A stretch of 64,000 bases of DNA, from contig JAFPTG010000003.1 in assembly GCA_017400345.1 (NCBI GenBank), positions 5,813 through 69,812 on the forward strand, read 5' to 3'. Under the pieces are notes generated by a model that had not been told where the DNA came from, made no database searches, and worked only from the letters and a program-made list of their open reading frames with translations. The number at the start of each line of letters is the position of its first letter. Position 1 is the stretch's first letter. A program made the translations under genes and the position numbers. This DNA comes from Oscillospiraceae bacterium (GTDB lineage: Bacteria; Bacillota; Clostridia; Oscillospirales; Ruminococcaceae). Shown here piece by piece: positions 884 through 5,416 of the stretch.

Positions 884-1231
884 ATGAGAGTTTCTTTTAC
901 AGGAATTGGAGAAACAGTGGTAACGTTTGAATCTGATAAAAAACTTGAAGTAGGAACGTTAGTTAACGTTGTTGAAAACGGCAAAGTGGCTGAAGCTAAA
1001 AAAAACGAGAAGTTTGTTGGAATTGTTGTGAATGCAACTGAACACGAAGCAAGTGTGCAGATCAAAGGCTACATTAAAACAAAATTTGAAGGCACAATTG
1101 AATATAATGCTCTGGGCTGTTGTAATCTGTGCTTGGGAGAGGAAGGGAAGTTAAAGTTAAGTGAAAAAGGACGTGAAGTTTTATTATTAGATATTAATAG
1201 TGAAACTAATGAAATTGGGATTTTTATGTAA
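884..1231 (+). CDS. Small hypothetical protein heading a phage-like capsid module (possible DUF2190-type head decoration protein)
   Basis: Track ORF 842-1231. The preferred start is ATG 884 (MRVSFTG...), 6 nt after AAAGGAGAGAG. It is 115 aa and looks beta-rich (EVGTLVNVVENGKVAEA...KFVGIVVNA). It lies immediately upstream of the prohead protease and capsid genes. The functional call is weak. Confidence 0.4.
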   Translation: MRVSFTGIGETVVTFESDKKLEVGTLVNVVENGKVAEAKKNEKFVGIVVNATEHEASVQIKGYIKTKFEGTIEYNALGCCNLCLGEEGKLKLSEKGREVLLLDINSETNEIGIFM

Positions 1232-1245
1232 AAGAGGAAACATTT

Positions 1246-2175
1246 ATGGAGAATAATGTAATAACACAAAATATTGATGCTGATTTAGAACTAATTAATA
1301 AACTTACTCGCAGACCGCTTAAAGCAGAAGAGGTGTATACATTTAATGTGGTACTGTGCGACAATGACCTTGACCGTGATTTTGAAGTATTTGATTTAAA
1401 ATGCTTATATGAATTAAAAGAACTGTTTTTAGGAAAGACGGGCATATTTGATCATGACCCAAAAGGGAGTAATCAAACATCTCGTATATTTTTTACAGAA
1501 GTTGTGCGAGATCCAATAAAAAGAACAAAGCTGGGGCAAGATTATTATATGTTGAAAGCTAAGGCCTATATGATTAGAAATGAAAAGAATAAAGATTTAA
1601 TAGAGGAGATAGATGGCGGAATAAAGAAAGAAGTGAGTATTGGCTGTAGCGTTTCTTGCGTTAAATGTTCGATATGTGGATGCAATACAAAAAAAGAAAA
1701 ATGTGAGCACGTGTTAGGAAATAAATATATTGTAAACGGAGAAGAACAATTGTGCTATCATGTTTTAGAAAGTGCAAATGACGCTTATGAATGGTCTTTT
1801 GTAGCAGTGCCAGCTCAAAGGCAGGCGGGTGTGGTAAAAAGTATAAGAAAGAAGTTTACAGATTCGTACGAAACTAACAATTTCGGCAACGAAGACCGAA
1901 CGCAGTTAGATAAGTACTTGGAATATATTTCACAACTAGAATCAGTTATTGGCGAATTTGAAGAGGAACTAAGATCGCAGGTAAAAAAATCATTTGCAGT
2001 TTTACAGCCAGAGTTAAAACTTTCTACAATAAAAAACATGATAGAAAAGTTAGATATTACAGAATTAAAAGAACTGAAAAAAGTACAAGACGAAAAAATG
2101 GGCAAGAATGTTATAATCCAGGCAGAGGGGCTAGAAACCTCAAAAGATGCAGATTTAACCAAGTTTTCAATTTAA
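1246..2175 (+). CDS. HK97-family (S78) prohead serine protease with a Cys-cluster insertion and a coiled-coil, scaffold-like C-terminal extension
   Basis: 309 aa with RBS AAGAGGAAA. It shows the S78 pattern: His in GIFDHDPKG, Ser in KKEVSIGCSV, and a distal strand YEWSFVAVPAQRQAGV. There is an inserted CVKCSICGC...KCEH cluster. The last ~110 aa are heptad-like (YLEYISQLESVIGEFEEELRSQ...ELKELKKVQDEK). Confidence 0.7.
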   Translation: MENNVITQNIDADLELINKLTRRPLKAEEVYTFNVVLCDNDLDRDFEVFDLKCLYELKELFLGKTGIFDHDPKGSNQTSRIFFTEVVRDPIKRTKLGQDYYMLKAKAYMIRNEKNKDLIEEIDGGIKKEVSIGCSVSCVKCSICGCNTKKEKCEHVLGNKYIVNGEEQLCYHVLESANDAYEWSFVAVPAQRQAGVVKSIRKKFTDSYETNNFGNEDRTQLDKYLEYISQLESVIGEFEEELRSQVKKSFAVLQPELKLSTIKNMIEKLDITELKELKKVQDEKMGKNVIIQAEGLETSKDADLTKFSI

Positions 2176-2195
2176 AAAGGAGGATATTTATTATT

Positions 2196-3194
2196 ATGGA
2201 GAGTTATAAAAGTGTAAAATTAGATAAAGATATGTATAGAGTGGCAAATAAAAGCTTTTCGGAAGTTTTAGAAGGCTATGATTGTTCAAGCAACTACAGA
2301 GAAAGTTCACTTGCAAATATAGATGCATTTCAGCGTCAGTTAAAGCGGTTCGATATAAGAGTAGGACGGAACAATTCAGATGAAGTAGAGAAATTTTTTA
2401 GAAGTGCGCAAACGGCCACATTATTTCCAGAATATGTTCTGCGTGCGGTAAAATCTGGCACAGAGGTAGTTAATGTACTTAACGAAATAATTGCGGTTAG
2501 AACAAAAATAGATAGTATGGATTACCGTGCGATATATTTTGAACAAGATGATGAACCTACAGTTATTGGGGAAGGAGCATCGATCCCTAGCGTTAATATA
2601 AAGTTAAAAGAAAATTTAGTGACATTAAAAAAGACAGGTCGGATGTTGGTAGTAGATTATGAAACTATTAAGAATAGAAAGATAGAAGTATTCACAATTG
2701 CATTAAAACAGATTGGTTATAAAATTGCGGAACAACAGCTAAAAAGTGCAATAGATGTTTTGATGAATGGTGATGGTAATTTTAAGCCAGATGTAAAAAC
2801 AATAAGTGGCGGTTTAAAGTTCGAAAATTTAATAGATTTATGGAACAGCTTTAGTGAATATAAAATGAACACAGTGTTAATTTCTCCTAACATGGCAAAA
2901 AAGATGCTGGGCCTTAAAGAAATTTTTAATCCATACAACGGGTTAAAGTTTGAATTAACAGGTCAGGTAGATACTCTTATGGGAGCTCGATTGCTAAAAT
3001 CTCAATTTGTACCAGATGATGTAATTATTGCTCTTGATAAAAACTTTGCTTTAGAAATGGTATGTTGCGGCGATATTCAAGTTGACTATGATAAATTAAT
3101 CGATAGACAGCTCAAACGTTCGACAATTACTTCAACTTATGGCTTTACCAGAATTTGTGAAGACGCAGTTAAGATTTTAAAATTTTCAGAGTAG
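2196..3194 (+). CDS. HK97-fold phage major capsid protein
   Basis: 332 aa with RBS AAAGGAGGA. It directly follows the prohead protease. The C-terminal third (GARLLKSQFVPDDVIIALDKNFALEMVCCGDIQVDYDKL...TITSTYGFTRICEDAVKILKF) has the pattern shared by HK97-type capsid and encapsulin shells. Confidence 0.65.
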   Translation: MESYKSVKLDKDMYRVANKSFSEVLEGYDCSSNYRESSLANIDAFQRQLKRFDIRVGRNNSDEVEKFFRSAQTATLFPEYVLRAVKSGTEVVNVLNEIIAVRTKIDSMDYRAIYFEQDDEPTVIGEGASIPSVNIKLKENLVTLKKTGRMLVVDYETIKNRKIEVFTIALKQIGYKIAEQQLKSAIDVLMNGDGNFKPDVKTISGGLKFENLIDLWNSFSEYKMNTVLISPNMAKKMLGLKEIFNPYNGLKFELTGQVDTLMGARLLKSQFVPDDVIIALDKNFALEMVCCGDIQVDYDKLIDRQLKRSTITSTYGFTRICEDAVKILKFSE

Positions 3195-3207
3195 TAAAAT
3201 AAACATA

Positions 3208-3234
3208 AAAATCCCCCTTAATAGGGGATTTTTT
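3208..3234 (+). terminator. Rho-independent terminator after the capsid gene
   Basis: AAAATCCCC / GGGGATTTT 9-bp stem, 7-nt loop, followed by a T-run. Confidence 0.7.
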
Positions 3235-3474: not shown

Positions 3475-3960
3475 ATGGAAGCAGGAGAGCTAGCAGTTAT
3501 AACTAAAGCAAAAGCTGTTTGCAATTATATTATAACAGTTACAGATAAATCCCCTAAAAAGTTTCGTTTTACTTTAATTGGCCGTATGCAAAATTATGCA
3601 CTAGATATTATTGAAGGAATGATTATGGCAAATGAAGTTTACGTTACGGAAAAGGGATTAGGCGTTAATATAGAAGCATTAAAAGAGAGGCAAAAATTAC
3701 AAAGGAATGTACTTACAAACATAAAACTATTAGCATATGTATCGCAACTTTCTATGGAACAAAAATGCATATTGCCAAAACAATATGAGCAAATTACAGA
3801 AAAGCTCTATACATGCCAAAACCTCTTGGGTGCCTGGATTAAAAGCGATTTAAAGATAACATCGGTATATCACACATTTTTAATGTGTAGATATATAGGG
3901 ATATGGTTGCATGGTTCTGGTTGCGTTCTCCAAACGCGGGCAATAGCAACAATGCGCTGA
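3475..3960 (+). CDS. avd: DGR accessory variability determinant (Avd; four-helix-bundle / 23S rRNA-IVS protein family)
   Basis: RBS AAAGGGAG. It has family-typical segments SPKKFRFTLIGRMQNYALDIIEGMIMANEVY and QNLLGAWIKSD. It sits directly upstream of a TR and a DGR-type RT. The ORF reads on into the TR before reaching a stop, so the last ~30 aa are probably not part of the conserved fold. Confidence 0.8.
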   Translation: MEAGELAVITKAKAVCNYIITVTDKSPKKFRFTLIGRMQNYALDIIEGMIMANEVYVTEKGLGVNIEALKERQKLQRNVLTNIKLLAYVSQLSMEQKCILPKQYEQITEKLYTCQNLLGAWIKSDLKITSVYHTFLMCRYIGIWLHGSGCVLQTRAIATMR

Positions 3961-4034
3961 ATGCTAATACTGGCAACTATGTGAATAACAATAACGTCCA
4001 CAATAGCAACAGGTGCGTCCCCGCATGGCCTTAA
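3906..4034 (+). repeat. DGR template repeat (TR), non-translated
   Basis: In the frame offset from avd it reads VAWFWLRSPNAGNSNNALNANTGNYVNNNNVHNSNRCVPAWP*. That is 13 AAY Asn codons within 26 codons, ending in a GC-rich GCGTCCCCGC (IMH*-like) segment. It lies between avd and the RT. A perfect 9-bp hairpin follows at 4043-4064 (GATGTTTTT-AAGG-AAAAACATC). The boundaries are approximate. Confidence 0.75.
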
Positions 4035-4322
4035 CGTCTGATGATGTTTTTAAGGAAAAACATCCGGTGAAGCTAATCATGAATTTGCTTCTTAACCTTA
4101 AGGCAAAGGAACCATATTCCTTTTTGACTGCAAACAAAACTAAATTTATGTGGATTTGATTATCGGTTTTGTTAAGCAGCAGAAAAATACATACCGCCGG
4201 AAGGAAAAATGTATAAAGGAAATACTACTTAGAAGGATACTTTTGGACTGTGGCGCAAGCCTCGGCGGCTAGCGGAAATAGTAAAATAGGAAATAGTTAA
4301 AAATTAAGGGGGAGTATTACAA

Positions 4323-5381
4323 TTGTATGAAAAATTAACTGATTTTGCGAGTATTTATCAGGCATATAAAAAAACAGCAAAAGGAAAAAACATGATAAAA
4401 ACGAGGTAGTACGTTATGAAACAAATTTACATATGCAATTATGGCGTCTAAAAGAAAGAATAGAAAATAAGACTATTAAAATTGGTGGTTACCATAAATT
4501 TATGGTGTTTGATCCTAAAAAACGAGAGATCCAAGCATTAAGCTTTTCAGACAGAGTATTTCAACACCTGCTGTGTGATAAAGTGCTGATGCCATATTTT
4601 GAACCCAAATTAATTTATGATAATGCTGCGTGCAGAAAGAACAAAGGCACGCACTTTGCTCAAAACCGTTTCACTGGGTTTTTAAGAGATCACTATAAAA
4701 AGTATGGTAGTAAAGGATACATTCTAAAATATGATGTCAAAGGATATTTTAATTCTATACATCATAAAGTATTAAAAGAAAAACTTAAAAATTTTCCAGA
4801 CAAAGAGATTAAAGAGCTTCTCTATTATATTATAGATAGCTACGAAAGTGAACCAGAACGAGGTATACCCATGGGGAACCAATCTAATCAATGGTTTGCA
4901 CTTTACTATCTAGATCGCCTTGATAGAACTATAAAAGAGAAGTTGCATATCAAATATTATATCAGATATATGGATGATGGAGTGCTATTACACCAAGACA
5001 AAGGATATTTAAAAGAATGCCTTGTAGTTATAAAGGAACAAGCGACCAAAGACAAACTTGAATTTAATAAAAAAACAGAGATTTTTCCATTATGCCAAAG
5101 AGTAGATTTTTTAGGCTTCCACTTTTATCTTAACAGATACTGGAAAAGTCATAAAAAAGCTTAGAACATCTAATAAAAAACGGTTTAAAAGACGTCTCAA
5201 GCAATTTGAAAGACAATATGCAAAAGGGAAGATAACTTACGAAGAAATAAAAAGAAGTCTTGCCAGCTACCAAGGCCATCTAAAGCACGGTCATACATAT
5301 AAACTCAGAAAACATGTAATTTCTAATATAAAATTCAAGCAGAAAACAAACAATAATGAAGAAATGGGAAATAGCCTTTAA
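4323..5381 (+). pseudogene. DGR-type reverse transcriptase, split into three frame segments by two frameshifts
   Basis: A TTG at 4323 follows AAGGGGGA and starts LYEKLTDFASIYQAYKKTAKGK, which stops at TAG 4407. The central segment is track ORF 4433-5164 and is open from 4370. It contains IPMGNQSNQWFALYY (the DGR SQ-type motif) and YIRYMDDGV. The C-terminal segment returns to the first frame: LTDTGKVIKKLRTSNKKRFKRRLKQF...GHLKHGHTYKLRKH, with its stop at 5379-5381. The shifts lie in the A6 run at 4385-4390 and near 5128-5133. Confidence 0.8.
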
Positions 5382-5396
5382 AAGGGCTATTTTTTA
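5371..5396 (+). terminator. Terminator after the RT
   Basis: ATAGCC..GGCTAT stem overlapping the RT stop codon, followed by TTTTT. Confidence 0.55.
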
Positions 5397-5416
5397 TTTT
5401 AAACTTAATAACATCA

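Follow-up and report, generated by a model that had tools for sequence, protein, structure and literature searches.

The gene transfer agent (GTA) of Rhodobacter capsulatus, RcGTA, is co-regulated by a host-encoded factor, is inherited vertically under purifying selection and has a truncated small terminase subunit (TerS), and the PBSX element of Bacillus subtilis spans ~28 kb. PBSX packages random 13-kb host DNA (PMC12946183). The GTA of Faecalibacterium prausnitzii, FpGTA, is podovirus-like and encoded by two operons that include holin and endolysin genes, with a head/packaging operon and a second structural operon 125 kb away; it has no replication genes, its TerS has no obvious DNA-binding domain, and its particles carry ~8.5-9 kb of DNA (Borodovich et al., Nat Commun 2026, PMC12946183). 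Loss of the TerS DNA-binding domain has been reported for both RcGTA and FpGTA (PMC12946183). GTA-like packaging has been reported in Oscillospiraceae without a gene cluster being identified (PMC12946183; bioRxiv 10.64898/2026.07.08.737213), and it was recently described as prominent in gut Oscillospiraceae and Ruminococcaceae, with the responsible genes known only for Faecalibacterium (PMC12946183). Here, we analyzed three phage head genes in a 64,000-nucleotide stretch of DNA from an Oscillospiraceae bacterium (the window; C16:5813-69812 of the source genome, which we label G000). The three genes, at window positions 884-3194, encode a decoration protein, a protease-scaffold fusion and an HK97-type capsid protein. 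We propose that this trio is probably the capsid-assembly operon of a phage-derived, GTA-like particle system that is kept by the host and distributed over several loci.

The trio consists of three same-strand (+) open reading frames (ORFs) that are tightly spaced and all intact. An earlier reading of the letters alone (hereafter the original prediction) had described tightly packed genes with good ribosome-binding sites and a terminator, and we found the same: the ribosome-binding sites read as GGAG-type, and an intrinsic terminator with an 11-bp stem, including four G-C pairs, followed by a T run closes the operon (3207-3233). Five terminator-like sites were seen in the region versus 0.8 expected. 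The last gene (2196-3194, +) encodes the major capsid protein of 332 amino acids (aa), which matches Pfam Phage_capsid_4 (PF25209; 44.1 bits, 4e-11, cut-off 27) and, over residues 3-330, the major head protein family phrog_3922 (4.6e-82). Its family profile also matches a solved capsid chain, Gp6 of PDB entry 9m66 (1.5e-4), and membership of this family predicts that the protein has the HK97 fold. The first gene (884-1231, +) encodes a 115-aa capsid decoration (cement-type) protein that belongs to a family of virion structural proteins (phrog_4588, 4e-18). Its AlphaFold2 model is an all-beta domain (predicted local distance difference test (pLDDT) score 91.5), for which Foldseek found PDB matches in HFTV1 (8qsy, TM-score 0.71), the base of phi29 gp8.5 (6qyy), T1 (9kzj_H), phiCD508 (9gb0_C) and the SHP protein of phage 21 (1td0). 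Sequence searches of the PDB with the single trio proteins returned nothing useful. The identities originally given to the capsid and the small head protein were right in substance, but Pfam did not confirm that the small protein belongs to DUF2190.

The middle gene (1246-2175, +) encodes a 309-aa prohead serine protease with a helical, scaffold-like C-terminal domain. It matches phrog_16951 (1e-91) and, weakly, a head maturation protease family (3e-5, PHROG). No S78 family was present among its Pfam matches at E <= 0.1, and the Pfam XkdF/S78_2 model PF14550 found nothing in G000 at E <= 1 while matching a Bacillus subtilis control genome. The AlphaFold model, built on 45 relatives (pLDDT 84.9), comprises a beta-rich N-terminal domain, a disordered linker and three long helices at residues 215-288, with the protease domain at residues ~10-190 and a conserved, hydrophobic C-terminus. 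Searched against BFVD, the model matched entries named 'Prohead serine protease', 'COG3740 head maturation protease' or 'XkdF-like' (E 1.8e-18 to 1e-5), and in the PDB herpesvirus proteases ranked at the top without reaching significance (E 0.2-1.2). As modelled, the protein shares its fold with phage prohead proteases. The earlier description of an S78 prohead protease with a scaffold-like tail therefore holds for the fold and for the helices, but not for a Pfam S78 match. Both His70 (in GIFDH) and Ser131 (in EVSIG) are invariant in the 45 protease sequences, and they are the putative catalytic pair, judged by resemblance to the motifs of HK97 gp4 rather than by structural superposition. A metal-site-like cluster of cysteines and a histidine (C134, C141, C144, C153, H155 and C170) is equally invariant; once described as an unusual insertion, it is present family-wide and hence a family trait.

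The trio had been regarded as a minimal stand-alone module. We found instead that G000 carries cognate genes for packaging, portal, neck and baseplate at other sites, preceded by the same palindrome. For this search, the ORFs of two capsid-matching 'phage' records were compared with the whole of G000 (tblastn), and phmmer was used together with profile hidden Markov models (HMMs) that covered 20 gene families and were derived from 80 related loci. The particle genes of G000 make up five transcription units at four loci, each located among housekeeping genes. Besides the trio, TerS and the large terminase subunit (TerL, 54% identical to that of a relative) lie between holA and hisS (C6:5157-6759), and the portal gene (phrog_30703, 1e-113) lies between nth and tsaE (C29:34641-35787). 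The fourth locus is a block of ~5 kb between an AAA ATPase gene and pucR/ftsEX (C5:12080-17139), which holds two units: an 81-aa gene with a baseplate-J-like gene, the latter split (C5:12080-12982), and an operon of the order adaptor-109-249-gp25-like-LysM-hub (C5:13748-17139). The profile HMMs agree on all of these assignments. In the C5 operon, 109 and 249 stand for proteins of that length in aa, the adaptor is of the head-tail type and the hub is that of a baseplate. The 249-aa protein has no family match, is unlike the 225-aa protein at the same position in the relative G009, and is similar only to its counterpart in the distant genome G041. The trio and its cognate genes are on four separate contigs in G000, and they lie 116-158 kb apart on single contigs in the congeneric G002 and in G041. 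The true start of TerS is the ATG at C6:5157, giving a 116-aa protein, and its homologues align only from position ~84 of phage TerS profiles, a truncation that would fit loss of the DNA-binding domain. Many NCBI records label members of the portal family 'serine/threonine protein phosphatase', apparently a mis-annotation that has spread from record to record; this family has matches at E <= 1e-40 in more than 7,498 clusters (90% identity).

The palindrome connects these scattered units. In its exact form, GTTGC-N10-GCAAC, it occurs four times in the 769 kb of G000, where base composition leads us to expect ~0.25 copies (calculated). Three of the four copies sit 38-69 nt 5' of TerS, the portal gene and the adaptor (neck) operon, and copies with one mismatch are found 67-71 nt 5' of the trio and of the 81-aa/J-like unit. 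The copy of the trio, aGTTGC-N10-aCAACt (798-817), is a putative site for a shared regulator, with one mismatch to AGTTGC-N10-GCAACT and a distance of 67 nt to the first start codon. The chance that three of four sites fall into five windows of ~100 nt is ~1e-9 (calculated). Moreover, G002 has kept copies at the same places, and G041 has exact copies before TerS, the portal gene and the protease gene. Where relatives carry the genes as one contiguous cluster, the exact palindrome lies 5' of TerS at 16 of 43 loci (25 exact copies in total in 1.29 Mb), with the consensus AAGTTGCA-N8-TGCAACTT. We infer that a single ancestral regulatory site may now exist as one copy per fragment. The protein reading it may be an activator, as suggested by the position of the palindrome upstream of the likely -35 region. 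The canonical Firmicutes LexA box, GAAC-N4-GTTC, is found four times in G000, with none near the particle loci.

Two further palindromes were observed. An additional one-mismatch copy, ATGTTGCATAAGATTCAACAACTT, lies 35 nt 5' of a 179-aa ORF without a Pfam match (C5:26293-26886; ORF C5:26347-26886), a possible extra member of the regulon. A different, perfect palindrome, TTGAACA-N4-TGTTCAA, is located at 842-859, directly before the ribosome-binding site of the first trio gene. It has a single copy in the genome and is apparently not conserved in G002, where the upstream reading frame differs, and we treated it as uninformative.

The ancestral arrangement is seen in Oscillospirales. The capsid family has at least 555 loci in public genomes, and the best 80 all belong to Oscillospirales-type organisms (45-51% identity), including Oscillospiraceae, Acutalibacteraceae, Flavonifractor, Pseudoflavonifractor capillosus ATCC 29799 and Youxingia wuxianensis NSJ-64. 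These relatives carry the genes together on one strand, in a single cluster that spans a median of 12.05 kb (n = 29). Its head part runs TerS, TerL, portal, protease, decoration, capsid, adaptor and two neck genes, the decoration gene thus lying between protease and capsid, and its tail part runs sheath, tube, two small genes, LysM, hub, gp25-like, baseplate J and a ~170-aa protein, with no long tape-measure protein and no lysis genes. On either side, the cluster is bordered by housekeeping genes (the two closest were taken, 141 proteins in all), such as those for PBP5, glycogen enzymes and PGK, and integrase is absent from the leading Pfam families of these flanking proteins. Only 6 out of 50,697 phage records match the capsid. 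From these comparisons, the G000 set is the fragmented form of a ~12-kb, integrase-less, PBSX-like head-plus-contractile-tail cluster. Across the relatives, the similarity ranks of portal, protease, capsid and hub are correlated (rho 0.42-0.70), which supports a shared origin of these four. One of the six capsid-matching phage records, from a human faecal sample (MT835508.1, L002, 'UNVERIFIED Bacteriophage sp.'), is a bacterial scaffold in which a ribosomal-protein operon and ABC transporters surround a head-tail cluster; it is either contamination or host DNA packaged into particles.

To assess selection, we calculated the ratio of nonsynonymous to synonymous substitution rates (dN/dS) between G000 and G002 (dS 0.3-0.65), a check that the original prediction had proposed for the trio. 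The trio showed housekeeping-like purifying selection, with values of 0.04-0.12 (decoration protein 0.12, protease-scaffold 0.059, capsid 0.044; capsid versus the third species of the genus, G001, 0.084), next to 0.04-0.13 for neighbouring housekeeping genes. The cognate genes were similar: 0.071 for TerS, 0.063 for TerL, 0.039 for the portal and 0.04-0.23 for the genes of the C5 locus. Within the species, three independent assemblies share an identical capsid protein at 98.5% nucleotide identity, and the trio has accumulated 23 synonymous versus 4 nonsynonymous changes (pN/pS, the corresponding ratio for within-species changes, 0-0.09; PBP1A 0.093), with 0 nonsynonymous and 8 synonymous changes in the capsid gene relative to the sibling strains. 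Conservation and synteny, which had likewise been proposed for checking, extend well beyond the trio: synteny holds at each of the four loci in all three species of the genus (G000, G001 and G002), and the same four-way split, with every gene open, occurs in G041 (GCA_031284525.1, ~0.8 Mb). This genome is distant. Its UvrA is 68% identical to that of G000, which is 59-66% identical to the UvrA of all sampled members of the family and order, and the genus sits on a long branch. In G041, TerS-TerL is on one contig, the portal and the protease-capsid genes are 116 kb apart on another, and a third contig holds a 188-125-LysM-hub-75-213 block. Identity between G041 and G000 is 62-63% for the capsid, 62% for the portal and 59-60% for TerL, at or above the identity typical of neighbouring housekeeping proteins, and the genes flanking the split loci differ between the two genomes. 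Together, these observations show a scattered, motif-linked set that has been inherited vertically and under purifying selection for most of its history.

We compared the set with what characterizes a GTA. Structural and packaging genes are fixed in the chromosome without genes for replication, integration or lysogeny, and they are inherited vertically under purifying selection, with the decay in G001 (see below) as the exception. The phage-derived set probably makes DNA-filled particles in the manner of a GTA. Hints that it packages host DNA are indirect, namely the truncated TerS and the deposition of bacterial scaffolds from relatives as virome 'phages'. In the mechanism that we propose from the known families, a dimeric regulator would bind the palindrome and turn all units on together. 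The capsid protein would then co-assemble on the portal around the protease-scaffold fusion, after which Ser131 and His70 would digest the scaffold. TerS and TerL would fill the head by headful packaging, which would be non-specific, as in gene transfer agents, because TerS is too short to hold the usual N-terminal DNA-binding domain, and the 115-aa protein would cement the expanded shell. With the genes for sheath and tube apparently lost from this clade of reduced genomes, the particle would have a short tail or none. A broader picture is one that we put forward tentatively, with more doubt than confidence: a gut lineage with genomes of 0.7-0.9 Mb may have kept, across deep divergence, a DNA-packaging particle in units of one or a few genes, each re-equipped with its own copy of the ancestral palindrome, as a regulon adopted by the host that makes tail-less or minimal-tail transfer particles, and the same cluster may be the GTA machinery of Oscillospiraceae.

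Several observations weigh against a host-kept particle system. In G000 itself, the portal gene has a +1 frameshift at codon ~57, and the J-like gene (197 aa) is split into 87 and 115 aa. Decay is much further advanced in G001, where TerS, TerL, portal, protease (a frameshift plus a nonsense codon), the 249-aa gene, LysM and hub all contain frameshifts or stops, which leaves four open genes, those for the capsid, the decoration protein and the 109-aa and 81-aa proteins. The adjacent host genes of G001 are clean, and the system is therefore dispensable. Of the 20 families covered by the profile HMMs, sheath, tube and four others had no homologue among the ORFs of G000, and the sheath profile found nothing in G000, G001, G002 (97% complete) or G041, while it returned 4.5e-110 in the control genome G010. 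No lysis genes were identified. The regulatory role of the palindrome is deduced from its position and conservation. Finally, the similarity ranks correlate only weakly with those of TerL, and a single common origin of all pieces is not proven.

These points lend weight to the view that the trio is a functionless remnant, that is, the open piece of an old prophage-like element that was scattered by rearrangement and is eroding neutrally, with its intactness due to chance. The lesions that disable the portal gene of G000, its J-like gene and the diversity-generating retroelement (DGR) next to the trio, the loss of most genes, including the protease, in G001, and the missing sheath and tube genes all agree with such erosion. 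At ~5 lesions per 11 kb of phage-derived DNA, the probability of finding none in the 2.3-kb trio is ~0.35 (calculated), so intactness alone is not significant. Nevertheless, we consider a neutral remnant unlikely, as dN/dS is housekeeping-like whether species or strains of one species are compared, no piece is broken in G002, the sibling strains or the distant 0.8-Mb G041, and a conserved copy of the palindrome is present at every fragment. Neutral DNA is not expected to last over such divergence in genomes of 0.7-0.9 Mb. Of the earlier suggestion of a prophage remnant, the phage origin stands, whereas neutral decay, if it was implied, does not. In the same way, frameshifted copies in relatives, named beforehand as evidence that would speak against an intact module, were found in G001 but not in G002, the sibling strains or G041.

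The lesions in G000 are probably specific to this strain. Eight neighbouring host genes show no disruptive lesion, and the sibling strains have a full-length portal (cluster P0001; 381 aa, 99% identity, 24 member sequences). In G002 all genes are open, including the portal (378 aa), the J-like gene (197 aa) and the DGR genes avd (131 aa) and reverse transcriptase (RT; 350 aa). Assembly errors are a less likely cause of the G000 lesions, because the sibling assemblies are intact and an 11-nt deletion, found in the DGR, is atypical of sequencing error. We observed one unrelated case in G002, whose holA (DNA polymerase III delta, contig C8) carries a 1-nt indel, relative to G000 and G001, that breaks the frame. 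This indel is probably an assembly error, and single frameshifts in these metagenome-assembled genomes need read-level confirmation. Overall, the particle system has been long maintained but is dispensable and has been lost in some lineages, and G000 itself may no longer make filled particles.

Another possibility is that the genes serve to steal tails or interfere with phages: the host-fixed head and neck genes would make small capsids that join the tails of infecting phages, as in capsid-forming PICIs (phage-inducible chromosomal islands), either for DNA transfer or for interference. The genes for the head, packaging and head-tail adaptor are kept while sheath and tube were not found, and some relatives, G009 for example, have a version of the cluster with head and neck genes but no tail, all of which this explanation would accommodate. 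However, no integrase, replication or AlpA-type gene was found at any G000 locus or, among the leading Pfam families of the flanking proteins, beside the contiguous clusters, and scattered genes cannot be co-packaged. In addition, the hub, LysM, gp25-like and J-like genes are under selection, which is a better fit to the particle having a short tail of its own. We regard this explanation as improbable, and the related proposal of a PICI-like satellite fails for similar reasons, given that there is no integrase or replication gene and that the scattered pieces are not mobilisable as a unit. A domesticated DNA-free shell, such as an encapsulin-like nanocompartment or another non-packaging role, is very improbable: although the capsid and decoration genes of G001 are open despite broken terminase, portal and protease genes, and the conserved C-terminal tail of the protease-scaffold is of the kind used for targeting to shells, Pfam gave no encapsulin family match and no cargo-type gene lies nearby, in G002 and G041 the constraint on terminase and portal equals that on the capsid, the capsid operon shares its palindrome with the packaging genes, and the G001 pattern is equally explained by the capsid decaying last.

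G000 is a 769-kb assembly of 29 contigs (88.5% complete). A complete PBP1A gene flanks the trio on the left, and a DGR (Avd, template repeat and RT), followed by uvrA, flanks it on the right. The PBP and DGR neighbours, and the lack of portal, terminase and tail genes close by, had been correctly described, and the same applies to the 5.8 kb of contig before the window start, which contain PBP1A, a MerR-type gene and unrelated genes but no portal and no terminase. Synteny with a sibling strain (L121) and with G002 stops inside the MerR-type gene, at ~C16:3469, whose MerR-like ORF is 274 aa long in G000 versus 242 aa in the sibling strain. Beyond this point, the sibling strain has the ATP synthase operon, where G000 has a methylase fragment and uncharacterised ORFs. 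This break indicates a strain-specific rearrangement or insertion at C16:1-3468.

The DGR (window 3475-5400) is inactivated only in G000, where avd has lost 11 nt at its end (window ~3851) and the RT gene has gained insertions of +2 and +1 (window 4385 and 5132), and it is intact in the sibling strains and G002 (Avd 131 aa, RT 350-351 aa). Its variable repeat is located at ~C7:9509-9654, inside the gene for a 588-aa secreted protein next to dnaJ/dnaK (C7:8673-10439). Template and variable repeat match at 66 of 67 non-A positions and differ at 10 A positions. We considered whether the DGR belongs to the same element as the trio and rejected this, as none of the contiguous relatives carries a DGR and the variable repeat sits in a secreted host protein. 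Elsewhere in G000, we observed a complete-looking cluster of the contractile-injection-system or tailocin type (C8:39915-56104). N-terminal motifs point to DUF4255-like and PAAR-like DUF4280-type proteins, a 583-aa sheath, two tube proteins, a 565-aa protein, and LysM-like, gpD-like, spike, gp25-like, 891-aa baseplate-J and fibre-like proteins. The families of this cluster differ from the head-linked tail genes, with cross-matches limited to the J-like proteins.

The cluster family of the trio is a concrete and widespread candidate for the genes behind GTA-like packaging in Oscillospiraceae and Ruminococcaceae. Its survival through extreme genome reduction argues for a benefit to the host, and its organisation shows that such a system can be split into separate units without loss of selective constraint. 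The 20-bp palindrome at every unit offers a handle on the regulator and on further members of the regulon, for example genes for lysis or release, as well as a means of searching for fragmented systems that will escape prophage finders. The losses in G000 and G001 provide natural 'non-producer' contrasts.

Among described systems, PBSX shares its gene order with the contiguous relatives (xtmA-xtmB-xkdE-xkdF-xkdG ... xkdK-xkdM ... xkdP-xkdQ-xkdS-xkdT in PBSX), and both are fixed in the host without integration and replication genes. The cluster of the relatives is shorter, at ~12 kb versus ~28 kb, and has no long tape-measure gene, no lysis genes and no xre/xpf regulators. The Pfam XkdF model does not match the trio protease, and the G000 set further differs from PBSX in being split into four loci and in having no sheath and tube. 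FpGTA is similar in that its host is also a Gram-positive gut member of the Oscillospiraceae/Ruminococcaceae and in its organisation, with separated operons, no replication genes and a TerS that seems to have no DNA-binding domain (FpGTA capsid RCH50849.1, portal RCH50851.1). Unlike FpGTA, the G000 set comprises five units at four loci, is of myovirus-type origin and has no lysis genes that we found. RcGTA likewise has structural genes dispersed over several chromosomal loci. Its ancestry, however, is unrelated and siphovirus-like (Alphaproteobacteria), its regulator and cis-motif are different, and its head genes have stayed together in a 15-kb cluster, whereas G000 has terminase, portal and capsid at a separate locus each. 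Capsid-forming PICIs (Alqurainy et al. 2023) also bring an HK97-type capsid, protease, portal, terminase and connectors of their own without a complete tail, but they move as one contiguous island that includes integrase, regulators and replication genes, and nothing of this kind occurs at the G000 loci. What is new here is the four-way fragmentation of this cluster family in genomes of <1 Mb, the ancestral palindrome at each fragment, and the series of losses across strains and species.

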